A stretch of 64,000 nt of DNA from the NCBI RefSeq assembly GCF_046119375.1, contig NW_027362765.1:118792001-118856000 (forward strand). Direction: 5' to 3'. Every line of letters starts with the position of its first letter. The first letter of the stretch is position 1. The stretch is from Phyllobates terribilis (Eukaryota). The translations under genes and the position numbers were made by a program. The notes under the pieces were generated by a model. It searched no databases. It worked only from the letters and a program-made list of their open reading frames with translations, and was not told where the DNA came from. Shown here piece by piece: positions 9,175 through 44,766 of this stretch.

Positions 9175-10804
9175 CAGTACAGACCAAAAGTTTGGACACA
9201 CCTTCTCATTTAGAGATTTTTCTGTATTTTCATGACTATGAAAATTGTACATTCACACTGAAGGCATCAAAACTATGAATTAACACATGTGGAATTATAT
9301 ACCTAACAAAAAAGTGTGAAACAACTGAAAATATGTCTTATATTCTAGGTTCTTCAAAGTAGCCACCTTTTGCTTTGATGACTGCTTTGCACACTCTTGG
9401 CATTCTCTTGATGAGCTTCAAGAGGTAGTCACCGGAAATAGTCTTCCAACAATCTTGAAGGAGTTCCCAGAGATGCTCAGCACTTGTTGGCCCTTTTGCC
9501 TTCACTCTGCGGTCCAGCTCACCCCAAACCATCTCAACTGGGTTCAGGTCTGGTGACTGTGGAGGCCAGGTCATCTGGCGTAGCACACCATCACTCTCCT
9601 TCTTAGTCAAATAGCCCTTACACAGCCAGGAGGTGTGTTTGGGGTCATTGTCCTGTTGAAAAATAAATGATGGGCCAACTAAATGCAAACTGGATGGAAT
9701 AGCATGCAGCTGCAAGATGCTGTGGTAGCCATGCTGGTTCAGTATGCCTTCAATTTTGAATAAATCCCCAACAGTGTCACCAGCAAAGCACCCCCACACC
9801 ATCACACCTCCTTCTCCATGCTTCACGTTGGGAACCAGGCATGTAGAGTCCATCCGTTCACCTTTTCTGCGTCGCACAAAGACACGGTGGTTGGAACCAA
9901 AGATCTCAAATTTGGACTCATCAGACCAAAGCACAGATTTCCACTGGTCTAATGTCCATTCCTTGTGTTCTTTAGCCCAAACAAGTCTCTTCTGCTTGTT
10001 GCCTGTCCTTAGCAGTGGTTTCCTAGCAGCTATTTTACCATGAAGGCCTGCTGCACAAAGTCTCCTCTTAACAGTTGTTGATGAGATGTGTCTGCTGCTA
10101 GAACTCTGTGTGGCATTGACCTGGTCTCTAATCTGAGCTGCTGTTAACCTGCGATTTCTGAGGCTGGTGACTCGGATAAACTTATCCTCAGAAGCAGAGG
10201 TGACTCTTGGTCTTCCTTTCCTCGGGCGGTCCTCATGTGAGCCAGTTTCTTTGTAGCGCTTGATGGTTTTTGCAACTGCACTTGGGGACACTTTCAAAGT
10301 TTTCCCAATTTTTCGGACTGACTGACCTTCATTTCTTAAAGTAATGATGGCCACTCGTTTTTCTTTACTTAGAATTTGTATTATGGCAAGAAAAAAGCAG
10401 CTAACAGTCTATTCAGTAAGACCATCAGCTGTGTATCCACCAGACGTCTGCACAACACAACTGATGGTCCCAACCCCATTTATAAGGCAAGAAATCCCAC
10501 TTATTAAACCTGACAGGGCACACCTGTGAAGTGAAAACCATTTCCGGTGACTACCTCTTGAAGCTCATCAAGAGAATGCCAAGAGTGTGCAAAGCAGTCA
10601 TCAAAGCAAAAGGTGGCTACTTTGAAGAACCTAGAATATAAGACATATTTTCAGTTGTTTCACACTTTTTTGTTAAGTATATAATTCCACATGTGTTAAT
10701 TCATAGTTTTGATGCCTTCAGTGTGAATGTACAATTTTCATAGTCATAAAAATACAGAAAAATCTTTAAATGAGAAGGTGTGTCCAAACTTTTGGTCTGT
10801 ACTG
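9175..10804 (-). mobile_element. Full-length Tc1-like DNA transposon, DD38E (Intruder-type), 1630 bp
   Basis: TA TSDs at 9173-9174 and 10805-10806; 265-bp TIRs at 9175-9439 and 10540-10804; transposase ORF inside. Confidence 0.95.
9338..10354 (-). pseudogene. DD38E transposase, open for 338 codons but lacking its native ATG
   Basis: Paired-like HTH, GRPR motif, [24 protein letters not shown] with 38 residues between D2 and E. The ORF begins at GTG; the native start MARKKQL lies inverted at 10383-10403. Confidence 0.88.
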
Positions 10805-15245: not shown

Positions 15246-16737
15246 TTAAGTAGGCCATCTAAAGTGCTTGGGGGCCTCCTGACATGTCTCTTGGCTAAGC
15301 ATGCGTGTGTATAGGGGGGAAATCGAGACTGGCAGCCATCAGTCAGACGAGCTGACAGACATCCAATATGTGCGGCCTTATGATCTGTTGAGGTGAATTG
15401 TGGGTGAACAATACGTCACAGTTCTCGATTCACAAATAATTCAAGATTCTGGGTTCCGTCTTGACTTCTGGATGCATTCAACATCCCTCCGGGGACAGTC
15501 TTGTGACAAACAGCTTGTCTATATCACTAATGTCCCAGCTCCCACAAAGCACTGCTCTTGCATGCATTTCCCATAACACACTGCACCTCAATGCATTGCA
15601 TTATGGGACCTGGGCTAAGTTCTCAGAAATTCACATTTCAATCTGCACCTAGCAAAATCCAACAGAACATGCCCTGATGTGCAGCACTGAGGGAGATATA
15701 GTGTTCACGCCACAACAGTGCAGTGGTCTCCAAACTACAGGAACCAGGAGGTCACACAAGGTCAGGAGTCTCCAATGACATCACTACACTTGGGGTGGAG
15801 CTACACGGTGACATTAGCCTCCAGCACCATCGCCTGTACCGGAAGCTCCTGCACTGGTGGTTCAATTATAAAGTCTCTTGCCCTAGATTCTCCCAGTAAC
15901 AGATGCTGGGTAATATTGGGTTGGCACACTGTTGCATATATATGCACGTCCCCAATAAATTTGGTTTTAGCTGCTGAGGAAAGTTGGCGGATGGGCCGGA
16001 GAGTTGTACTTTGAGGGAGAAGATGGGTTTCAATGCTAAGCTACATGACATACAGGAACAGTAGGCTGCGGAGGGTGCGCTGTTCAGAGCAATAACTACA
16101 GTAATATATTTAGTGAATGGGACGTCTGGAATTCCCCTCTTCCACCAAAACATCCCCACAGGTATGAGGAACATGAATAAATGAAGTCGCTGGCACTGTT
16201 GCCAGTAAGTAGGGACTCTCTGCATTATGCCACCCACAGGCGGACTCTCTCAGTCAATACTCAGCTAGGTAAATAGCTGTGCAAGCAGAAGTCCCCTCGT
16301 CAGGTGATGTTCCCTGAGCAGAAAGCGCAGGACTGACAAAGAGACCTGGTGATTAAAAAAGGCCCTATAACCATCAATACTAAAACACATAGGGGTTCTG
16401 ATTCTGGAGTCTAAGGTGGATGACATTCAACATGTCCTATGGCAAGTAACTGGGGGTCAACAATCAGCAAATCATTAAGCACCCACGAGGTGCGAGGGGG
16501 GTGAGGACTTGCATCAGACTAGAGAGAGGAATGATGAAGATGTGAGCAAATGACTAAATCATTTTCTTTGCCCCCATCTATGACCAACAGTTCATCCCCA
16601 CTTATTGCCAATTCTCCACAGTATAAAGTCACTGATCCTAAACTGCTCAAACACTAGCCATGCCCTCACTGACCCTCTATTCACCCACCTTCAAAGTCTT
16701 GTGACCCACAGCCCATCCACCCAAGCCCACTGCTCAC

Positions 16738-17226
16738 CCAGCCTCCATTTGTTTGTATCCATGGTCCTAGGGCCGTGTCCAGAAAGGTGGCCATCCACTC
16801 AATAATCCTAGGTATCAGATCTTCCATTTCCTTGTCTGCACTTTCAAAGCACAACGCCCCCCCAAAAGAGAAAAAAGCTACAATGCGTCCCCAGTTTATG
16901 CCGTCTCTGAACAGCTCGTGCACCACCTGCTCGAAGCTCTGATACGCAGTGTCCTGGGTGATGTGCAGCTGGCAGGTGAGGTCGCTGAATGCCCTGCGAT
17001 ACCTCAACTCAAACTCAACCGAGGCGTCCAGCAGCGTCTGCAGCACATCTTCAGCCACGCTGTCTGGCAGGGGTGCAGCAGCTTGGGCACCGGCCTGGGC
17101 AGTGGGTGAGGATCCATTCAGCAGTACTGCAGGCTCGGCATCACTGCAGCAGCTCAGGTTAAAGCCTTTCTGCGAAAGTTTCTTGCATATAAAGTTATGT
17201 ACAAGATTCTTATTGCCTCCGTCCAT
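16738..17226 (-). CDS. BCL2L1: Bcl-xL first coding exon (BH4, loop, BH3, BH1, BH2)
   Basis: Strong-Kozak ATG at 17226; MDGGNKNLVHNFICKKLSQKG...EFELRYRRAFSDL...ELFRDGINWGRIVAFFSFGG...WIQTNGGW|GTGAGC. Acceptor at 17252. With 13783-13920 gives 208 aa. Confidence 0.96.
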
Positions 17227-17697
17227 CTTCAGGAGTGAGAACATATCATGTCCTGGAATAGAGAGGCCGCAGCTGACCACAGCACCACATGGAAGCAGAG
17301 AGATGGACGTCAGGTGGTAGGAGACGTGGATCTAGAGTTCCCAGTGAAAGGACATAATGGGAATCACTCAGGCCTGATGGAAATAAACCCAAATGGACTG
17401 GTGACTGAGGGGAAAATGGTGATCATCTGCAAAAGAAGGAAGAGCATCAAAAAGAGGAATCTAGGAACATAATGACAAACAGCTCATACAGAAAGCAAGG
17501 AACGATCGGCATCTCCTGTCTATAGCAAAACTGATGTTATGTGACATGTTCCTCCTATAAGACCGGAGGATACAGCACAAATGTCAAATTCTCTTCCCTG
17601 GGCGGAGTATCCTCCTGTAACTCCACAACGTATGAGCTGTAAGACAACTGAGGAAAGAAGTGACACCTGATCTACGCTTCTATAGAAGCTGTCATTT

Positions 17698-25762: not shown

Positions 25763-26378
25763 CAAAAAGATTAATGTAAATAATAATCGTATTGTTGAAA
25801 ACGCTCCATCAGCCAAAAAATAAAAAAGTTATAGCTCTCAGAATAAAGCGATGCAAAAAAATTATTTTTTATACAAAAGAGTTTTTATTGTGTAAAAGCG
25901 CCAAAACATAAAAAAACTATATAAATGTGGTATCGCTGTAATCGTACTGACCCAAAGAATAAAGCTGCCTTATCAATTTTACCACAGGCGGAATTGCATA
26001 AAAAAAAAAAAAATCAATTTCTGAATTGTTGGTTTTCGCTTACCTCCCAAAAATCGGAATAAAAAGTGACGAAAAAATGTCATGTGCCCGAAAATGATAC
26101 CAATAAAAATGTCAACTCGTCATGCAAAAAACAAGCCATCACATGACTCTGTCGGCAGAAATATGGAAAAATTATAGCTCTAAAAATATGGCAATACTTT
26201 TTGCACAAAAAAGGGTCTTTTAGTGTGTGACAGCAGCCATACATAAAAACCCACTATAGATCTGGTATCGCTGTAATCGCACAGACCCGAAGAAAAAGGT
26301 CATCTAATCACTTACACGAGGAACGGCGTAAAAAATAAATAAAACCTATTCTTCACCTGCTGTTGATTTGTTCATGCT

Positions 26379-27451
26379 TGTAACGGGTCCGGGAGGCGGA
26401 ACCTCTGAGCTACTATACAAGGGGGCGGCCCTTGTAAGGGAGCGGGTGGCAGTCTCTGGGTGAACGGACAGGGAGTTACGGCAAGTGATCAGGGCAGTCT
26501 CTGGGTAAGGGGTAGGTACGACCTGTGATGGCAGAGCCTCCGGGTAGGCTAGCAGGCAGATGGTAGATGTGTGCTCCCAGGTGAGCAAGCGAGAGTCTCT
26601 GGAATAGCAGGTGGTCACGGCACGTGACGGCGGAACCTCCGGGCTGGCAGGCAGGTAGGTAACGGAGAAGCGCTCCCAGGTGAGCGGGCAAGAGTCTCTG
26701 GAATAGCTGGTGGTCACCGCACGTGACAACGGGACCTCCGGGCTGGCAAGCAGGCAGGTAACGGAGATGCGCTCCCAGGTGAGCGGGCAAGAGTCTCTGA
26801 GATAGCTGGTGGTCACAGCACGTGACAACGGAGCCTCCGGGCTGGCAAGCAGGCAGATAACGGAGAAGCGCTCCCAGGTGAGCGGGCAAGCTGGTCCATA
26901 GACAGACTGACCGGAGTAGTAAGGCAGACCGTCGGACCTCAGGCAAGCAGGCAGGTAGCTGATGTGCGCTCCCAGGTGAGCGGGCAGGCTGGTCCTTTAG
27001 ACAGACTGACAGGAGTAGTAAGGCAGACCGTCGGACCTCAGGCAAGCAGGCAGGTAGCTGGCAGGTAACTAGCAGGAAACTGGCATGAAACTGGCAGGTA
27101 ACTGGCAACGGGACCTGAGGGCTGAAGCACAGGTGAGACACAGGTGCAAACAACATTGCTCGGGCACCTCCATTTTGGAGGAGGTGCCTTATATATGATG
27201 AAGTCCTCCGTCCATTGGCCGGGGACTCCTTAGGACGGCGCGCGCGGCCCCTTTAAGAGGAGGGGAGCGCGCGCGCGCGCGCCCTAAGCACAGGAGCCGG
27301 GAAGGAGCGCGCGCTGAGAGCAGAGCGGGAGGAGGACGCCGGGAAGGAGCGCGCGCTGACAGCAGAGCGGGGAGAGGACGCCGGGCACGGAGCAGAGCGG
27401 TGAGGGGAGCAGCGTCCCTGCCTAGCAGAGGGCAGGGACGCCAGCGCTACA
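26379..27451 (-). repeat. 3' LTR (1073 bp)
   Basis: TGTAAC...GCTACA; differs from the 5' LTR by about 3 substitutions and one 11-bp indel (by eye). Confidence 0.96.
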
Positions 27452-30400
27452 GTACCCCCCCCTTTAGGCCCCCCCTTTTTTAGGCCAGACAGAAATTTAG
27501 CTAGGATGAGAGGGGCATGGATGTTCTCCCGGGGCTCCCACGTTCTCTCCTCAGGACCAAACCCCTTCCAATCTACCAGAAAAAAGGTCTTTCCTCTTAC
27601 CCTTTTGGTGGCAAGAATGTTCTCTACCTCAAACTCGTCCTCAGCAGAAACCGGAGCAGGAGGCGTACCTGTAGACTTGGAAAAAGAGTTAAGCACCACA
27701 GGTTTGAGGAGAGACACATGGAAGGAGTTAGGGATCCGTAAGTTGGCCGGGAGTTTCAATTTATAGGCCACCGGGTTGATCTGACTGATGACCTCCAGTG
27801 GGCCGATGAACCGAGGCCCTAACTTATAGGAAGGGATCTTGAGCCGGACATATTTGGACGAGAGCCAGACTTTATCCCCAGGGCGGAATTGAGGAGGGTC
27901 CAGACGTTTTTTGTCAGCGTGTCTTTTCATACGCTCGGATGACAGAAGGAGTGCGGACCGGGTACTCTCCCATATGGAGGAAAATTTGTTAACAAGAGAT
28001 TCCGCAGCCGGATTGTCCGCCGAGGTGGAGACGGGAAACGGGATCCGAGGATGCTGACCGTAGACTACAAAAAACGGGGATTTGGAGGAAGACTCGCTCT
28101 CGTGATTGTTGTACGAGAATTCGGCCCATGGCAGGAGATCCACCCAGTCAGAATGGTGGGCATTAACGAAGTGCCGAAGGTAACTGGTCAGGTTCTGATT
28201 GATCCGCTCCACTTGACCATTAGACTGTGGGTGGTAAGCGGAGGAGAAGTCCAGGGTGACGTCCAGCAATTTACAAGTGGCTCTCCAGAAACGGGAAGTG
28301 AACTGTACCCCACGATCCGACACGATGTGACGGGGCAGGCCATGAAGACGGAAGATGTGGCGGATAAAGTCTTTAGCCAGCTCGGGTGCAGACGGAAGAC
28401 CTGGCAGTGGAATGAAGTGAGCCATCTTGGAGAAGCGGTCAGCGACCACCCAAATGACCGTACAACCGGCAGAGACGGGTAGATCAGTAATGAAGTCCAT
28501 CGCTATATGCTGCCAGGGGGCAGCAGGTACTGGCAGAGGTAGGAGGCGGCCGGCCGGCAGGTGTCTCGGAACTTTGTTGCGGGCGCAGGACACACAGGCA
28601 GAAACAAAGTCTATTACATCCTTGTGCAGGTTAGGCCACCAGTAGTGCCGGGTAATAAGCTGGAGGGTCTTTTTCTGACCGGCGTGGCCAGCTAGTTTAG
28701 ACGAATGACCCCAGTGTAGGATCTTCTCCCGATCAGGTACTGGTACGAACGTCTTACCAGGAGGAAGACGATTTAGACTCACGGGAGCCACCTGCATTAC
28801 TCTGGCGGGATCGATGATATGTTTCGGATCCTCCTCGAGATCAGACACCAGAAAGGACCGAGACAAGGCGTCCGCCTTGACGTTTTTGTCAGCCGGGCGA
28901 AAATGAAGGACAAAATCAAAACGAGCAAAAAACAAGGACCACCGGGCTTGGCGCGGGTTAAGTCTCTGGGCATGCTGGAGGTAAGCCAAGTTCTTGTGGT
29001 CAGTGTAAATTATTACCGGGTGAAGAGCCCCCTCGAGCAGGTAACGCCACTCCTCCAATGCCAGTTTGATGGCCAATAACTCTCGGTCTCCTATGGAATA
29101 GTTGCGCTCAGAGGAGGAGAAGAGTTTAGAGAAGAAGCCACAAGTTACCATCCTCCCGGAAGATGATTTTTGAGTAAGTACCGCTCCGGCTCCAGAGGAG
29201 GAGGCGTCAACTTCCAGGAAGAACTGCTTGTTGCCATCTGGGCGATGCAGCACCGGGGCGGAAGAGAAGGCCTGTTTAAGGGAAAGAAAGGCCTCCTCTG
29301 CTTCGGGTGGCCACTCTTTGGGATTAGTACCTTTACGGGTGAGCGCAGAAATTGGGGCCGTCCGGGAAGAGAAGTGTGGTATGAAGAGGCGGTAGTAGTT
29401 GGCGAAGCCCAGGAATCGCTGAATGGCCTTCAACCCCTCCGGTCGGGGCCATTTCTCGATGGCAGACAGTTTCTCAGGATCCATTTGTAGGCCGGTCTGA
29501 GAGATAATGTAGCCCAGAAACGGAAGCGAGGTCTGCTCAAAGAGGCACTTCTCAAATTTAGCGTAGAGATGGTTCTGCCTTAGCCTGAGCAGGACCTGAC
29601 GAACGTCCCTCCGGTGAGTCTGGAGATCCGGAGAGAAGACCAAGATGTCGTCCAGGTACACCACTACGCAGGAGTAGAGAAGGTCCCGGAAGATGTCATT
29701 GACCAACTCTTGAAAGACGGCAGGAGCGTTACAGAGACCAAAGGGCATTACCAGGTATTCATAGTGGCCGTCCCGGGTGTTGAATGCCGTCTTCCATTCA
29801 TCCCCCTGACGAATACGAACCAGGTTGTACGCCCCACGAAGGTCCAGTTTGGTGAAGATCCTAGCCCCCCTCAGGCGATCAAATAATTCTGGAATGAGCG
29901 GAAGGGGGTACTTATTCTTCACCGTGATCAGGTTTAGGCCTCTATAGTCTATACAGGGACGGAGAGAGCCGTCCTTCTTTTTGACGAAAAAGAAGCCTGC
30001 TCCCGCCGGGGAGGTAGATTTCCGGATGAATCCTCTGGCCAGATTCTCCTCAATATATTCGGACATTGACCGGGTCTCAGCAGCGGATAAAGGATAGATA
30101 CGCCCACGGGGAGGAGTAGTACCGGGTAGCAGATCGATGGGACAGTCGTATGGTCTATGTGGTGGTAATGTCTCTGCCTCCTTTTTATTAAAGACATCTG
30201 CATAAGACCAATAAGGAATCGGAAGTCCAGGTAGATTAGCTGGGGTAGGAGAGGGACGGACGGGATGGACGGGAACCAGGCAGGTTTTATGACAGTCTTG
30301 TCCCCAGCGAAGGACCTCTCCGGTTTGCCAGTCTAGCACGGGTGCATGTCTCTGGAGCCAGGGCAGACCTAGCAAGAGGGCGTGAGAGAGTCCAGGCAGA

Positions 30401-30648
30401 ACATGAAAGGAGATACTTTCAGAATGCAGCATTCCCACCTGCAGGGTAATGGATTCGGTGATGAGTTGAATGGGGCGAGGTAAGAGGCCCCCATCCACGG
30501 CAGCGACAGACAAGGGTACAGCCAGAGGTTTGGTGGGGATGCGGTATTTCTCAACCAGGGACTGTGAAATAAGGTTCCCGGCTGCTCCAGAGTCAAGTTG
30601 GGCTAGTTCGAAATAACGGTTCTCCCCGTAGATGATCGAAACTGACAA
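27253..30648 (-). CDS. pol: Pol polyprotein (protease, RT, RNase H, integrase, chromodomain), expressed by -1 frameshift from gag
   Basis: LDSGA protease; YLDD RT; EVDAS RNase H; HHCC and MDF/SDRG/NGQVE integrase; GPY/F-like GPL; chromodomain FEVENILATKRVRGKTFFLVDWKGFGPEERTWEP. No stops over 1131 codons; the frame stays open upstream to the slip site at 30720. Confidence 0.96.
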   Translation of the reverse strand: MSVSIIYGENRYFELAQLDSGAAGNLISQSLVEKYRIPTKPLAVPLSVAAVDGGLLPRPIQLITESITLQVGMLHSESISFHVLPGLSHALLLGLPWLQRHAPVLDWQTGEVLRWGQDCHKTCLVPVHPVRPSPTPANLPGLPIPYWSYADVFNKKEAETLPPHRPYDCPIDLLPGTTPPRGRIYPLSAAETRSMSEYIEENLARGFIRKSTSPAGAGFFFVKKKDGSLRPCIDYRGLNLITVKNKYPLPLIPELFDRLRGARIFTKLDLRGAYNLVRIRQGDEWKTAFNTRDGHYEYLVMPFGLCNAPAVFQELVNDIFRDLLYSCVVVYLDDILVFSPDLQTHRRDVRQVLLRLRQNHLYAKFEKCLFEQTSLPFLGYIISQTGLQMDPEKLSAIEKWPRPEGLKAIQRFLGFANYYRLFIPHFSSRTAPISALTRKGTNPKEWPPEAEEAFLSLKQAFSSAPVLHRPDGNKQFFLEVDASSSGAGAVLTQKSSSGRMVTCGFFSKLFSSSERNYSIGDRELLAIKLALEEWRYLLEGALHPVIIYTDHKNLAYLQHAQRLNPRQARWSLFFARFDFVLHFRPADKNVKADALSRSFLVSDLEEDPKHIIDPARVMQVAPVSLNRLPPGKTFVPVPDREKILHWGHSSKLAGHAGQKKTLQLITRHYWWPNLHKDVIDFVSACVSCARNKVPRHLPAGRLLPLPVPAAPWQHIAMDFITDLPVSAGCTVIWVVADRFSKMAHFIPLPGLPSAPELAKDFIRHIFRLHGLPRHIVSDRGVQFTSRFWRATCKLLDVTLDFSSAYHPQSNGQVERINQNLTSYLRHFVNAHHSDWVDLLPWAEFSYNNHESESSSKSPFFVVYGQHPRIPFPVSTSADNPAAESLVNKFSSIWESTRSALLLSSERMKRHADKKRLDPPQFRPGDKVWLSSKYVRLKIPSYKLGPRFIGPLEVISQINPVAYKLKLPANLRIPNSFHVSLLKPVVLNSFSKSTGTPPAPVSAEDEFEVENILATKRVRGKTFFLVDWKGFGPEERTWEPRENIHAPLILAKFLSGLKKGGPKGGGTVALASLPSARQGRCSPHRSAPCPASSPRSAVSARSFPASSSRSALSARSFPAPVLRARARALPSS
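27455..27465 (-). other. Polypurine tract
   Basis: AAAGGGGGGGG on the minus strand, 3 nt before the 3' LTR. Confidence 0.85.
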
Positions 30649-30659
30649 CAGCAGGGATG

Positions 30660-30720
30660 GAGAAGATTTATTCTTGTCTAGGTGGACCTCTCTGAGCGAA
30701 CCTAGACACAGGCGTTTCCC
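30660..30720 (-). promoter_or_regulatory. -1 ribosomal frameshift cassette
   Basis: G GGA AAC at 30720-30714; 9-bp stem TGTCTAGGT/ACCTAGACA starting 5 nt downstream; -1 frame is continuous with pol. Confidence 0.88.
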
Positions 30721-31652
30721 GACCTCTCCGGGCAGGCACGGATCCGGTGCTCCTTACTGCCACAGTAGAAGCAGCTCCCCTCGGCACGGCGTGAGTCCTG
30801 ACGGGTTTTGACCATCTTGGTCTGGTCGACCTGCATAGGCTCAGGAGAGTGTACCTGGGGAGAGATGGAGGAAATGACGGGTTTCTGGAAAGTAGGAGCT
30901 AAACGTGGAATCCTTCTCTCACGGGTGACCTCTTTGGCACGCTCCTGGAACCGTAGGTCAATCCGGGTGGCAAGGGTTATTAGATCATCGAGAGAGGTAG
31001 GAATGTCCCGACCAGCAAGTTCATCTTTAATACGACCGGACAGACCCTCCCAGAAGACGGATACCAGAGCGTCGTTATCCCAGGCCAGCTCCGAGGCAAG
31101 GGTGCGGAACCGTATGGCATATTGGCCCACGGTGAGACCCTCCTGACGGAGGCGTAGCAGAGAGGATGCGGATGAGGTCTTCCGTCCGGGTTCGTCGAAG
31201 ACTTTCCGGAAAGCCGAGAGAAAAGCAGGCAAGTTGGACACCAGGGGGTCTCCTCTCTCCCATAGAGGATTTAGCCAGGCCAGGGCCTCCCCGGTGAGAT
31301 GGGACATGATAAAGGCAATTTTGGCCCGGTCGGAATTAAACTGATGGGACAAAAGTTCAAAGTGCAGGGTGCACTGATTTATGAAGCCCCGAGCCTGGAC
31401 GGAGTCGCCTCCGAAGCGAGGAGGTGCAGACAGCCGGGGACCGGGATAGGTTACCATGGTATTAGTGGGTAGCGGAGCTGCCGGGTTGCGAGTCATGGTA
31501 CTGGCAGTGGCTGCAGGTGGTGCAGTCAGAGTGTCCAGGCGAGTATTGACATTCCGCAGGTGACCCAGGATGGACTCCTGTTGGGACCTTTGACGGGACA
31601 GTTCATGACACAGGTCCGTGAGCGAGGGAGCTTGGGTGCCACCGGGTTCCAT
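30702..31652 (-). CDS. gag: Gag (capsid-like domain plus CCHC zinc knuckle), 316 aa
   Basis: ATG at 31652; PPRFGGD...ARGFINQC...KIAFIMSHLTGEALAW; LRQEG; CFYCGSKEHRIRAC (CX2CX4HX4C). Confidence 0.95.
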   Translation of the reverse strand: MEPGGTQAPSLTDLCHELSRQRSQQESILGHLRNVNTRLDTLTAPPAATASTMTRNPAAPLPTNTMVTYPGPRLSAPPRFGGDSVQARGFINQCTLHFELLSHQFNSDRAKIAFIMSHLTGEALAWLNPLWERGDPLVSNLPAFLSAFRKVFDEPGRKTSSASSLLRLRQEGLTVGQYAIRFRTLASELAWDNDALVSVFWEGLSGRIKDELAGRDIPTSLDDLITLATRIDLRFQERAKEVTRERRIPRLAPTFQKPVISSISPQVHSPEPMQVDQTKMVKTRQDSRRAEGSCFYCGSKEHRIRACPERSGNACV

Positions 31653-31665
31653 GGCCCGAACAAAC

Positions 31666-32727
31666 TGTAACGGGTCCGGGAGGCGGAACCTCTGAGCTAC
31701 TATACAAGGGGGCGGCCCTTGTAAGGGAGCGGGTGGCAGTCTCTGGGTGAACGGACAGGGAGTTACGGCAAGTGATCAGGGCAGTCTCTGGGTAAGGGGT
31801 AGGTACGACCTGTGATGGCAGAGCCTCCGGGTAGGCTAGCAGGCAGATGGTAGATGTGTGCTCCCAGGTGAGCAAGCGAGAGTCTCTGGAATAGCAGGTG
31901 GTCACGGCACGTGACGGCGGAACCTCCGGGCTGGCAGGCAGGTAGGTAACGGAGAAGCGCTCCCAGGTGAGCGGGCAAGAGTCTCTGGAATAGCTGGTGG
32001 TCACCGCACGTGACAACGGGACCTCCGGGCTGGCAAGCAGGCAGGTAACGGAGATGCGCTCCCAGGTGAGCGGGCAAGAGTCTCTGAGATAGCTGGTGGT
32101 CACAGCACGTGACAACGGAGCCTCCGGGCTGGCAAGCAGGCAGATAACGGAGAAGCGCTCCCAGGTGAGCGTGCAAGCTGGTCCATAGACAGACTGACTG
32201 GAGTAGTAAGGCAGACCGTCGGACCTCAGGCAAGCAGGCAGGTAGCTGATGTGCGCTCCCAGGTGAGCGGGCAGGCTGGTCCTTTAGACAGACTGACAGG
32301 AGTAGTAAGGCAGACCGTCGGACCTCAGGCAAGCAGGCAGGTAGCTGGCAGGTAACTAGCAGGAAACTGGCAGGTAACTGGCAACGGGACCTGAGGGCTG
32401 AAGCACAGGTGAGACACAGGTGCAAACAACATTGCTCGGGCACCTCCATTTTGGAGGAGGTGCCTTATATATGATGAAGTCCTCCGGCCATTGGCCGGGG
32501 ACTCCTTAGGACGGCGCGCGCGGCCCCTTTAAGAGGAGGGGAGCGCGCGCGCGCGCGCCCTAAGCACAGGAGCCGGGAAGGAGCGCGCGCTGAGAGCAGA
32601 GCGGGAGGAGGACGCCGGGAAGGAGCGCGCGCTGACAGCAGAGCGGGGAGAGGACGCCGGGCACGGAGCAGAGCGGTGAGGGGAGCAGCGTCCCTGCCTA
32701 GCAGAGGGCAGGGACGCCAGCGCTACA
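31666..32727 (-). repeat. 5' LTR (1062 bp) with CCAAT and TATA
   Basis: TATATAA at 32471-32465 and CCAAT ~32490 on the minus strand; GC-rich U3; tandem-repeat-rich R/U5. Confidence 0.96.
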
Positions 32728-35700
32728 ATGCTGCCTCCCAAAGATCGCAGTATGGCTCGGCTCACATTTATCCTGCGCTCTACACTGGGGTTTCCGTGTA
32801 AATCTCTGAAATAAGTGATTCAGAAGGAGCCTCCGGCAGATGATTCCATATAATGAGGCAGATGGAGGCACTGTAGACGCCATCTGGCCTGTGATCCCAC
32901 GGTGTCCGTCTTTTTATTAGGCGTGCATAAAAGTGCCGTTGGCCTCAGTTTTGTGCACCTCTGAAAACAAAGGTCTCCAGAGTAACTCTGCTGCCTCACT
33001 ATAGTGAATTGCTCCCTCGGGGGTTTCATCTGAATTACGTCACTCAGAGATTTAAATGGAAACCCCAATATCAGTGCTCAGCGTAGAGCACAGGATAAAT
33101 GGGAATATTTTACATAACATTTTAGATCACAATAAAAGCTTCGACTCAATCCACAAAAATGCAAGTCCCCACTCAGGTCTGTCATCTGTTAACGGAAATA
33201 TAGGGGACTTCCACGTTACTGATAGCACAAAGGCTCTGGAAAAGCAAAATGGCTCTTGCTCCCCAAAAAGAAATTTAGAAAATTCTGTGCTCCCAAATCC
33301 AAATGCCCACCTCCCTTCTGAGCCCCAGTGTGCCTAAACTGCAGTTAGTGTCCACTTTTTGGCATTTGTGTAGCGATGAGAGCCCGCCTAATTTACAGGT
33401 GCATGTCTCCAGAAGCATGAGCTGAGCATAACGTACTGGTCACTACAATGTACTGGTCACTACAACGGCAGTTTGCAATTTTTACTCAGCAACATCCACT
33501 GCTGCTTGTTTCTGGAAAAGACCCATGGAGTTAAAATCCTCACCACATCTGTAGATAAATTCCCAAAGAGGTATAATTTTCTAAGTGGGGTCACTTGAGG
33601 GGGGATTTTGCTCTTCTTGCACTTAGAGGCTCTGTGTATGGAGTCCACAAACTATTCTAGGAAAATCTGCGCTCCAGGAGGCAAATAGCACTCCCGAGCC
33701 TTGCCGTGTGGCAAAGTAGTACTGAACAGCCAGATTTGGGATATTTCTACATTCAGCAGAAATTGTGGGACAAATTTTGGTGCCATTTTTATCCATTTCC
33801 TAGTGTGAAAATGTAACATCTGGGGCTAAAAACAAAACTTTGGTGGTAAAAATGTAATTATTCTTTCTTCACTGCCCATTGGTATAAAACTCTGTGAGGC
33901 ACATGTGGTGTCAACATGCTCATTGCATCCCTAGATGAATTCTAGTTTGTAAAATAGGGTCTCTTATGTGAGGTTCTGCTGTTTTGGCAGCTCAGGGGCT
34001 CTGCCAATGTGACATGGCATCGTCAAAGCAGTCCAGCAAAATATGAACTCTAATATGGCGCTCCTTCCCTTCTGAACTTTCCCCCGTGCCTCAAAAGTAT
34101 TTTTTGACCCCATATATGGGGTATCGGCGTACTCAGGAGAAATTGCATAACAAATTTTGGGGTCCATTTTCTCCTGCTGTCCTAGTGAAAATGAAAAAAA
34201 TTGGAGGCTAAAACAACATTTTTGTGGGAAAAATATTTTTTTCCCATTTTCACAGATTAACGTTGTAAAATTATGTGAAGCACCTGTGAGTTCAAGGTGA
34301 TCACCACACACTTAGATAAATTCCTTCAGGGGTCTAGTTTCCTAACTGGGATCACTTGTGGAGGTTTTCCACTGTTTATGCACATCAGGGGCTCTCCAAA
34401 TGGGACATGACACCCACAGACTATTCTATCAAAGTCTACATTCCAAACCGCCACTCCTTCTTATCTGAGCTCTGCCGTGCACCCAAACTGTAGTTTACCC
34501 CAACATATGGGGTATCTGCATACTCAGGAGAAATTGCACAATGAATTTTGGGTTTCATTTTCTTCTGTTACCGTTGGGAAAATCAAAAAAATTGGTGCTA
34601 AAAGTATATTTTTGTTGGAAAAATGTGATTTTTTTTTATTTTCACAACTCTGTTATAAACTTCTGTGAAGCATCTGGGGGTTCAAGGTGCTCACCACACA
34701 TCTAGATAAGCTCCCTGCCCTGAGGGGCCTAGTTTCCAAAATGGTGTCACTTGTGGGGGGTTTCCACTGTTTAGGCAAATCAGGGGATCTCCAAATGCGA
34801 CATGGCGTCTGCTAATTATTCTTGCAAATTTTGCATTCAAAAAGTCAAATGGCGCTCCTTCCCTTCCGAGCCCTGCCGGGCGCCTAAACAGTGGTTTTCC
34901 CACACATATGGGGTATTGGCGTGCTCAGGAGAAATTGAATAACAAATTTTGGGGTGCATTTTTTCCTGTTATTCTTGTGAAAATAAAAAAATGTGGGCCT
35001 GAAGTAAAATGTTTGTGAAAAAAAAAGTTAAATGTTAATTTTTTTCTTCCAGGTTCCAAAAATTCCTGTGAAGCACCAGAAGGGTTAATAAACTTCTTGA
35101 ATGTGGTTTTGAGCACCTTGAGAGGTGCAGTTTTAGAATAGTGTCACTTTTGGGTATGTTCTGTCATATAGTCACTTCAAATGGTTTTGTAAATTTTGTT
35201 GGAAAAATGAGAAATCGCTGGTCAATTTTTAACCCTTATAACTTCCTAACAAAAAAAAATGTTATTTTATGAACTATTTTGTGTGACATAACTCTCTGAT
35301 TTAAGGACACAAAAATTAAGTTTTTTAATTGTTTGCCAATATTCCATTTTTTTTCACATATAAACTCAAAAAATATCAATCAAATTTTACCACTATCATG
35401 AAGTACAATATGTCACGGAAAAACAATCTCAGAATCAGGGGGATCCTTTGAAGTATTCCAGAGTTATTACCTCATAAAGTGACACTGGTCAGATTTGGCC
35501 TGGTTAGGAAGGTGAAAACAGCCTTGGGGGGCGAAGGGGTTAATGGATGTGACTATGACAATATCCATCTTACTGACGCCTCATTGGGACAGTCATACTC
35601 TGGGTGCAAAAGCCAAAAACACTGTTGTTATAGTGGACTGAAATAACGCCATACACGAGATAGGATGAACGTTCAGACAGCTGACAGCTCCCATCCTCCC

Positions 35701-42152: not shown

Positions 42153-43311
42153 CTTTAATGCACCCCTCAAGCATTTTATTAGTGTTTTCTTATTGCAACG
42201 CTGGAGTGGTGCTTCTTTACTAAGGTCCCTGACCCGAGTATTATACTCACCTGCTGCTGCCTTCAGCTTCTATCACCGCTTCTCTGGTCGGTCTCCAGCA
42301 GTTTGTGACTTGCTGGAACTAACTGGAGGTCACTTTTCTGTGCAGGTCTATAGGAGCCTCATTCTAGCCTTGTTCTGGTTCTTATAGACTTGCACTGAGA
42401 TCTTGTTACCATTACTTCTGACTTCCAGATAGTCAAAAGTTATGGCCTCAAGATGGCACTACCGTACCAGAGCGGTGCTGAAATAAGGTGAAGTTGGCGG
42501 CAGGTAAGTATGAGTAGGAGCAGGGACCTTAGGTTAGAAACGCCGCTAGAGTAATGCTTTAAATATTCGTCTATACCGGCAGAGCCGCTGAGTTCACTGC
42601 CATGCTTTTGGTGTGACGTTGGCGCCGCAGCCAATGCCAGTCACCTGGAGCAGTGGCTGAGAATTGCCAGTGGACCCAGGGAAGGTGAGTAAAGCGCAGT
42701 TTGTTTAACTTACTGCAGCCAGGACAAAACACTGAAGAGGTTGTTCCTTTTCAGACAATTTGCTGATCTCCAGGCACAGGTTTGGTGTTATAGGTTTACA
42801 GACATGGTGTGCCTCCAATAGGCCCACTTATTCTCTCCTCGCCCAACATGATGATGCCATTGGCAGCCTTCAGTCCTATTGCGGCTGAAGGGTGATGGCT
42901 GTAGGAAGGGACCTACCCACCCCCAATTTTCCAACCTCTTACATGCCACTACCACGATTAACTGCAGCATCTAAGCGGTTAAACTGCTTAGATTGGAGCT
43001 AGCTAGACTAGTCTGGATCCAAACTGTATGGCACATGCTCGGCTCCTAACCCCACTCCATACTTAAAGTGCACACATCTGCTGGGCATGTATGGGCTCTT
43101 GAGGTCCTCAGCACTTGCCTTGGTACGCTGGGTGCTTGCTGTGGACCTGTTCAGTCTAAATGTTGGGGGCTTATTGGGGACAGTACTGCATTGTATTATG
43201 CTCTTTCAGTCAGGGGCTACACTAGATTTTAGGGTGGGATGATGGAATTCTGCATTTGTGTAGGTGGAGGTATATTGTGGATTCCTGATGTGGCATAAAC
43301 CTTGGGATATA

Positions 43312-44766
43312 CACTGCTCAAATCATCAATGGAAATCAAATTTATTAACCAATGGATGCCTGGATTTGGAGTCATCCCCAAAATTAAAGTGGAAAAACAC
43401 ACTACAGGCTGATCCAACTTGGATTTAATGTCTTTAAAACAAGTCAAAATGAGGCCCAGTATTGTGTGTGGCCTCCACGTGCCTGTATGGACCTCCCTAC
43501 AACGCCTGGGCATGCTCCTGATGAGGTTGCGGATGGTCTCCTGTGGGATCTCCTCCCAGACCTGGACTAAAGCATCCTCCAACTCCTGGACAGTCTGTGG
43601 TGCAACGTGACGTTGGTGGATGGAGCGAGACATGATGTCCCAGATGTGCTCAATCGGATTCAGGTCTGGGGAACGGGCGGGCCAGTCCATAGCTTCAATG
43701 CCTTCATCTTGCAGGAACTGCTGACACACTCCAGCTACATGAGGTCTGGCATTGCCTTCATTAGGAGGAACCCAGGGCCAACCGCACCAGCATATGGTCT
43801 CACAAGGCGTCTGAGGATCTCATCTCGGTACCTAATGGCAGTCAGGCTACCTCTGGCAAGCACATTGAGGGCTGTGCGGCCCTCCAAAGAAAAGCCACCA
43901 CACACCATTAATGACCCACTGTCAAACCGGTCATGCTGAAGGATGTTGCAGGCAGCAGATCGCTCTCCACGGCGTCTCCAGGCTCTGTCACATGTGCTCA
44001 GTGTGACCCTGGTTTCATCTGTGAAGAGCACAGGGCGCCAGTGGCGACTTTGCCAATCCTGGTGTTCTGTGGCAAATACCAAGCTTCCTGCACGGTGTTG
44101 GGCTGTGAGCACAACACCCATCTCTGGGTGTTGGGCCCTCATACCACCCTCATGGAGTCGGTTTCTAACCGTTTGTGCAGACACATGCACATTTGTGGCC
44201 TGCTGGAGGTCATTTTGCAGGGTTCTGGCAGTGCTCCTCCTGTTCCTCCTTGCACAAAGGTGGAGGTAGCGGTCCTGCTGCTGGGTTGTTGCCCTCCTAC
44301 GGCCCCCTCCACGTCTCCTGGTGTACTGGCCTGTCTCCTGGTAGCACCTCCAGCCTCTGGACACTACGCTGACAGACATAGCAAACCTTCTTGCCACAGC
44401 TCGCATTGATGTGCCATCCTGGATGAGCTGCACTACCTGAGCAACTTCTGTGGGTTGTAGAGTCTGTCTCATGCTACCACGAGTGTGAAGGCACAACCAA
44501 CATTCAAAAGTGACCAAAACATCAGCCAGAAAGCATTGGTACTGAGATGTGGTCTGTGGTCCCCACCTGCAGAACCACTCCTTTATTGAGGGTGTCTTGA
44601 TAATTGCCAATAATTTCCATCTATTGTCTATTCCATTTGCACAACAGCATGTGAAATTGATTGTCTATCAGTGTTGCTTCCTAAGTGGACAGTTTGATTT
44701 CACAGAAGTTTGATTTACTTGGAGTTATATTGTGTTTTAGTGTTCCCTTTATTTTTTTGAGCAGTG
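43312..44766 (-). mobile_element. DD34E Tc1 element, transposase frameshifted
   Basis: TA-flanked CACTGCTC...GAGCAGTG; ORF pieces 43735-44610 (HTH, LFTDE) and 43229-43729 ([12 protein letters not shown]). Confidence 0.9.

Follow-up and report, generated by a model that had tools for sequence, protein, structure and literature searches.

Probable self-priming by the first ten RNA bases in a Tf1/sushi-like chromovirus of Phyllobates terribilis

INTRODUCTION

How does an LTR retrotransposon start reverse transcription when the bases after its 5′ LTR offer no complement to the CCA end of a tRNA? The question is raised by an element in a 64,000-nucleotide stretch of Phyllobates terribilis DNA (RefSeq assembly GCF_046119375.1, contig NW_027362765.1, positions 118,792,001 to 118,856,000 of the forward strand), called the window below and numbered from its first base. 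A preliminary description, made from the letters of the window, had proposed that the primer binding site (PBS) pairs with the predicted 5′ end of the element's own RNA. Self-primers have been described for yeast and vertebrate members of the Tf1/Sushi group (PMC6317226), self-priming is implicated from fungi to vertebrates (PMC4600332), and it is called a common feature of the Tf1/sushi group in a preprint that also describes the "pretzel" fold (bioRxiv 10.1101/2022.12.06.519325); these and all further papers are cited from excerpts. The class of mechanism is already known, and the window element is probably a further member of the group for which it has been described. From its sequences and by analogy with Tf1, we consider it likely (probability about 0.9) that this chromovirus uses the first ten bases of its RNA as the primer for reverse transcription.

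RESULTS

The element is a chromovirus, probably of the Tf1/sushi type

The element is an LTR retrotransposon of 6.35 kb on the minus strand (32727-26379), in a genome of 10.6 Gb. Its main parts are the following.

31666..32727, minus strand: 5′ LTR, TG...CA, 1062 nt (from the LTR alignment)
30702..31652, minus strand: gag ORF, 316 aa, with a PEG10-like capsid and a CCHC knuckle
30706-30712, minus strand: heptamer G GGA AAC in the gag frame, shortly before the stop; pol lies in the -1 frame
27253..30720, minus strand: pol frame, -1 phase, with protease, RT, RNase H, integrase, SH3 and chromodomain (from Pfam and the translation)
27455..27465, minus strand: polypurine tract ahead of the 3′ LTR (from the sequence)
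26379..27451, minus strand: 3′ LTR, 1073 nt

The two LTRs are separated by 3 substitutions and one 11-nt indel, and a 5-bp target site duplication, AGCAT, is present on both flanks. The TG...CA ends, the duplication, the polypurine tract and the order PR-RT-RH-IN are those of Ty3/gypsy elements. The protease scores under the curated Pfam cut-off, and its motif is seen in the translation. A chromodomain (PF00385, at 934-980, E 3.8e-11) lies C-terminal to the integrase, as in chromoviruses. Gag matches the Ty3 capsid model, the DUF4939 model and PEG10, and the top PDB match is Ty3 Gag-Pol. The nearest named Pol proteins are from dendrobatid frogs, followed by Xenopus and teleosts, and these frog and fish relatives stand at 48-69%. 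In an RT tree built without sushi-ichi, Tf1 and the tRNA-primed plant chromoviruses, the window element groups with chromodomain elements of Xenopus and teleosts. The element is young and probably belongs to the vertebrate chromoviruses of Tf1/sushi type. The same heptamer serves as the frameshift site in PEG10. Other families in the same genome have a single ORF of about 1499 aa. An Rfam scan of 26000-33000 gave one chance match, outside the element.

The primer binding site is complementary to the predicted RNA start

The 5′ LTR ends in ...TTACA at 31666. It is followed by GT, TTGTTCGGGC (31663-31654), C and ATG (31652). Four features, counted from the LTR end (+) or from the predicted RNA start, are needed here.

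32465..32471, minus strand: predicted TATA box, TATATAA (from the sequence; a TATA-like box stands at about -30 in every lineage examined)
32432..32441, minus strand: predicted self-primer, the first 10 nt of the RNA, GCCCGAGCAA (best helix with the PBS, with which it covaries)
31654..31663, minus strand: primer binding site, +3..+12 after the LTR, with a rare T at +6 in the window copy
31653..31653, minus strand: invariant C at +13, unmatched by a genomic G at -1

The letters and coordinates given previously for the PBS, its partner segment, the TATA box and the inverted repeat discussed below all hold in the sequence, and no TGG for a tRNA CCA end lies within +1..+8 of the window copy. When the first 16 nt after the LTR are compared with the whole LTR, the 10-bp helix (9 Watson–Crick pairs and 1 G:U) is the top helix and the runner-up has 7 bp. 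TATATAA starts at 32471, 30 nt before 32441, and the proposed pairing with 32441-32432 is confirmed. In dinucleotide-shuffled LTRs, a helix of equal score occurs anywhere in 22/300 cases, whereas none of the 300 has it within 5 nt of TATA+30. The pairing by itself is therefore modest evidence, and it is the position that makes the case strong. The two paired segments are separated by 768 nt, and the predicted start is 776 nt from the LTR end.

The pairs covary within the clade

Covariation of the two decamers had been named beforehand as a check on the proposal; it is present both in the clade of the window element and across three lineages. The clade sample started from 123 loci at a Gag identity of 60% or more; 11 duplicates and 12 loci without an anchor were removed. 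The 100 unique loci left have Gag identities of 65-100%. The segments were located by flanking anchors that exclude the segments themselves. Four protein queries (P0001, P0003, P0007 and P0012) gave matches that all fall in this clade, with no new families.

Each of pairs 1-10 is Watson–Crick in 93-99 of the 100 copies. At pair 6, 79 copies have A-T, 19 have T-A and 2 are broken; at pair 4, the counts are 92 for C-G, 4 for T-A and 4 broken. At pair 11, the PBS side is constant, and the combination is a mismatch in 69 copies, G:U in 19 and A-T in 12. On a quick Gag tree (53 thinned rows and 2 outgroups), the pair-6 swap forms one clade (SH-aLRT 97), inside which a 5-row clade with the pair-4 swap is nested. 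Since each swap falls on one branch, the double-sided counts stand for two events.

The pairs covary across lineages

Loci outside the clade were found with Pfam models, and their LTR ends were confirmed against the 3′ LTR where a pair was found. Out of 53 such loci, 5 were dropped for want of a usable LTR end and 48 were tested. A locus was counted as positive when its best helix ends at +12, has at least 9 bp and has a TATA-like box 24-36 nt upstream. This is the case for 32 of the 48. The other 16 are L029 (with a misassigned LTR end), L012 (unclear), five loci without a start region, one cut at the start, one with a decayed TATA box and an intact duplex, and seven with one-sided changes.

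Eleven representatives, picked after the helices had been seen and all from one genome, carry nine distinct 10-mers and are Watson–Crick in 110/110 cells. They belong to three lineages, whose RT shares 57-73% identity with that of the window element, and Xenopus and fish sequences branch between them. Two-sided changes occur at positions 3-8 and 10; positions 1, 2 and 9 are constant. Position 11 is G:U or mismatched in all of them. By duplex energy, each PBS pairs better with the start region of its own lineage than with those of the others. The comparison points to a core primer of 10 nt, placed 2 nt from the LTR end. The layout, the complementarity, its position and the two-sided covariation are the demonstrated part of the case for self-priming. 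The covariation, within the clade and across the three lineages, supports the self-priming reading of the preliminary description.

A proposed pathway for the first strand

Transcription would start at the G at 32441, and the 5′ end of the RNA would fold back onto +3..+12 across a loop whose length varies. If Tf1 is a guide, the RNase H of the element, a domain present in pol, would cut after about nucleotide 10 and free a 3′ OH. Minus-strand synthesis would then begin at +2, leaving two bases beyond the CA. The fold-back, start, cut and extension are modelled on what the Tf1 papers report in excerpt (PMC4600332, PMC7175516, PMC5341516, PMC11042837). A retained primer would be copied in plus-strand synthesis, so that changes in the primer reach the PBS; this may keep the two segments in step.

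An invariant C follows the primer binding site

The base at +13 is C in 11/11 representatives, in 45 of 46 loci outside the clade and in 99 of 100 clade copies; from +14 onward, the sequence varies between families. A G at -1, its would-be partner, is present in 0/11 representatives and in 1 of the 100 clade copies. One idea, which we regard as speculative and rather improbable, is that vertebrate Sushi elements use a capped 10-nt self-primer in which the m7G cap is read as an eleventh base, paired with or copied to the C at +13. The C may simply be a base recognized by an enzyme, because +1 and primer positions 1, 2 and 9 are likewise invariant. Were the cap idea true, the PBS would preserve the exact capped start in the genome, re-templated from the element's 5′ end in each cycle, and the DNA sequence would suffice to read start sites in thousands of families. 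The 10-nt primer and the invariant, partnerless C are possibly new details. A literature search, with subscription journals outside its scope, found no publication on cap pairing and nothing specific on self-priming in amphibians. Butler et al. 2001 reportedly included amphibian elements.

The G:U pair is a rare variant

The G:U pair noted previously is present in the window copy but is not the state of the family. The exact 23-nt junction with T at +6 has 63 matches genome-wide versus 16,873 for the junction with C at +6, which gives ten Watson–Crick pairs. Near-identical copies have C at +6 and all ten positions paired in 9/9 cases. Forty of the 63 T-variant junctions were fetched, and primer position 7 is G in 39 and the matching A in one (L247). 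Clustering them and the window copy (41 rows) at 99% identity gives 35 groups, and the first 600 gag bases of the window copy are identical to those of a C copy. These two observations point to repeated, independent changes to T. According to the predictions, the T makes the duplex weaker and a local hairpin over the PBS stronger (estimated net binding -5.7 kcal/mol for the window T copy vs. -11.3 for a C copy).

Transposition of a G:U lineage was considered and rejected: the near-identical T copies are segmental duplicates. L225, L229 and L233 have 398-399 of 400 flank bases in common, and L230 has the same flank, shifted. Thirty loci carry the marker of these copies; ten are 5′ LTRs, with C in nine and T in one. 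The marked T copies carry no information on the re-templating of the PBS, since they are duplicates.

Apparently, one insertion has been amplified with its flanks as a segmental repeat (L225, L229, L230, L233) on chromosomes and unplaced contigs (C15, C23, C24, C68, C89, C147, C164, C204 and C301; the flanks were checked for four loci).

The leader is long, repetitive and variable

Two further features belong to the leader and its approach.

32439..32464, minus strand: 9-bp inverted repeat, arms 32464-32456 / 32447-32439, mostly upstream of the predicted start
31860..32383, minus strand: 99-nt and 11-nt tandem repeats, making up much of the leader loop (from Tandem Repeats Finder)

A loop of about 780 nt had been emphasized. 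The long loop exists here (768 nt), but its length is not fixed and varies widely between copies and families. From the predicted start to the LTR end, we count 430-1126 nt in the clade (a further value, 1293, comes from a misregistered copy) and 198-730 nt in the other families. As the length follows the tandem repeats, a 780-nt loop is not a fixed feature.

The inverted repeat, which had been taken to link the TATA box to the start, is real and conserved in the clade, but it is confined to the clade and does not covary. It beats 200/200 shuffles of the 38-nt spacer. Each of its pairs is of one type in the 100 copies, with no compensatory change. It is missing in 8/8 representatives outside the clade, where the stems have 3-5 bp, and as a general feature it is rejected on both counts. 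A YY1-like motif, CAAAATGG, spans its loop. The name YY1 is our assumption, from likeness to the L1 motif. Two sister lineages have a YY1-like ATGG at the same offset, immediately ahead of the predicted start (window 32442-32454, minus strand; L144, L148).

These motifs may bear on where the RNA starts. Self-priming might operate from a start further upstream, for example near the first arm of the inverted repeat and set by the YY1-like motif, with a primer extended at its 5′ end beyond ten bases. Covariation reveals pairing and not the position of the RNA start, and ATGG at -8..-5 is common to the clade and to its sister lineage. In human L1, the YY1 site is downstream of the start, at nt 12-22 (PMC2912911, in excerpt). 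The third lineage, however, has no YY1-like motif and yet the same distance from TATA to G, and the pairing ends exactly at the predicted first base in 12/12 cases, with a pyrimidine at -1. We hold an upstream start to be improbable, at long odds, and retain the G at 32441 as the predicted first base.

Neither a tRNA nor another role accounts well for the duplex

A host tRNA, a tRNA half or a fragment could be the primer, the match to the LTR being secondary. The first 10 nt of host tRNA-Lys(TTT), the one tRNA that the comparison covered, pair with the PBS of the window copy by 7 Watson–Crick and 3 G:U pairs. This match drops to 5 bp in two clade subtypes and to 5-7 bp in the other lineages. 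The nine different PBS 10-mers each track their own LTR, and +1..+8 lacks TGG at all 11 sites checked. A tRNA primer is very improbable on these counts.

Folding predictions were made for the leader and for the separate strands. In the minimum-energy fold of the whole 822-nt leader, from programs that cannot draw a crossed (pretzel) structure, the PBS and the start segment are not paired to each other. In two-strand folds, the PBS is bound by the first 11 nt in 6/12 cases and by the first 25 nt in 8/12; in the window copy, neither binds it. Both kinds of fold contain competing local hairpins. Opening of the PBS followed by formation of the duplex is estimated as net favorable in 12/12 cases (-5.7 to -16.1 kcal/mol). 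A stem between U5 and the leader is possible in the window copy.

31684..31690, minus strand: possible U5-leader stem, 5′ arm (predicted fold)
31645..31651, minus strand: possible U5-leader stem, 3′ arm, overlapping the gag start codon (predicted fold)

It is paired in 93-99 of the 100 clade copies, with almost no double-sided change; shuffles do as well in 62/300 cases here and in 3-9 of 300 in four other representatives. We did not observe a convincing U5-IR stem in the folds of the window copy and the representatives. For the two further duplexes that lie beside the PBS in the Tf1 pretzel, these predictions give weak support in the group of the window element.

The idea of a general switch, in which a U5 segment pairs with the PBS, was also tried and rejected; for the family form of the window clade, 245/300 shuffles are as good. 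One lineage does support such a segment, in four or five of its representatives (0-23 of 300 shuffles). In L020, L015, L029, L033 and L046, a predicted U5-leader stem of 6-9 bp encloses the PBS and takes in the region where gag starts; its letters differ from family to family.

The duplex between the 5′ end and the PBS could also be a structural signal, acting in packaging, dimerization or control of translation near the gag start, with another primer. The PBS indeed abuts the ATG within a stable local fold (z -4.15), and competing U5 hairpins are predicted in several families. Yet, in all lineages, the duplex starts 2 nt past the LTR end, where a primer is required, and no alternative primer is apparent; the excerpts report self-priming as shown for Tf1, whose layout is the same (PMC4600332, PMC7175516). 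A purely structural role is as hard to credit as a tRNA primer. Chance complementarity in a GC-rich LTR, suggested by the equally good helix in 22/300 shuffled LTRs, has a negligible probability: the covariation counts, both inside the clade and between lineages, already refute it, and the 0/300 at the position speaks against it. Priming by the element's own first ten bases remains the preferred reading.

DISCUSSION

Significance and surroundings

Two-sided covariation over three lineages is sequence-level proof of the pairing. In the literature cited, as excerpted, yeast Tf1 is the only case in which self-priming is demonstrated, and for vertebrates it is inferred. At least 16,873 copies of the family's junction are present in the genome, and in a related frog Gypsy elements are reported to be abundant and to be expressed in the ova (PMC6278860, in excerpt). 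Given both the copy number and this expression, native material for mapping starts and primers should be easy to obtain. A primer without tRNA would presumably escape silencing by 3′ tRNA fragments.

Copies of the family also occur head to tail, about 3.95 kb and 5.19 kb apart (G000:C1:187480941-187492972 and G000:C9:384840211-384861918). The spacing is as expected for tandems with one common LTR, and Tf1 forms such tandems by an integrase-independent route (PMC11042837, in excerpt).

With the SH3_Tf2-1 model, the top 34 matches are on small unplaced contigs (C3181-C7643) and outscore all chromosomal matches. These contigs are possibly foreign DNA in the assembly. Elsewhere in the window, an exon of a Bcl-2 family gene (16681-17244, minus strand; PF00452, E 3.2e-30), which we take to be Bcl-xL-like, has the element about 9 kb upstream on the same strand. 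Remnants of Tc1/mariner-like transposases, judged by eye from the translations, are at 9338-9853 and 43229-44472.

Comparison with known systems

One close likeness is to the vertebrate Tf1/sushi elements (GyDB V-clade: Sushi-ichi, Amn-ichi/ni/san), which have in common with the window element an integrase with a chromodomain, a PEG10-like Gag and a self-complementary PBS; TGG is absent here at 11/11 sites. As expected for the Tf1/sushi group, the PBS of the window element has a partner of at least 10 bp in the 5′ LTR, located where the RNA is predicted to start. The 3′ end of its LTR fits CNTNACA, but the 5′ end, TGTAGCG, fits the fish-derived TGTYANR only in part (both consensus sequences from PMC3601003, in excerpt).

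For the plant chromoviruses of the Tcn1 clade, hosted by moss and club-moss, self-priming is predicted, in the excerpt of PMC6317226, from a complement of at least 10 bp placed 0-5 bp past the LTR. The window element has such a complement as well.

In Tf1/Tf2 of S. pombe, Tj1 of S. japonicus and Tosmo1-3, the RNA 5′ end is likewise complementary to a PBS after the LTR, and a chromodomain is present (PMC7175516, PMC4600332, PMC5341516, PMC11042837, bioRxiv 10.1101/2022.12.06.519325; in excerpt). In these elements, as reported there, the choice of start site determines whether the RNA can prime. Unlike them, the window clade has a long, repetitive leader (430 to over 1100 nt), and the window element has gag and pol in different frames with the G GGA AAC heptamer. 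The Tf1 primer has 11 nt, with the cut placed between 11 and 12 by experiment in the same excerpts, whereas in the window family the covariation extends over 10 nt.
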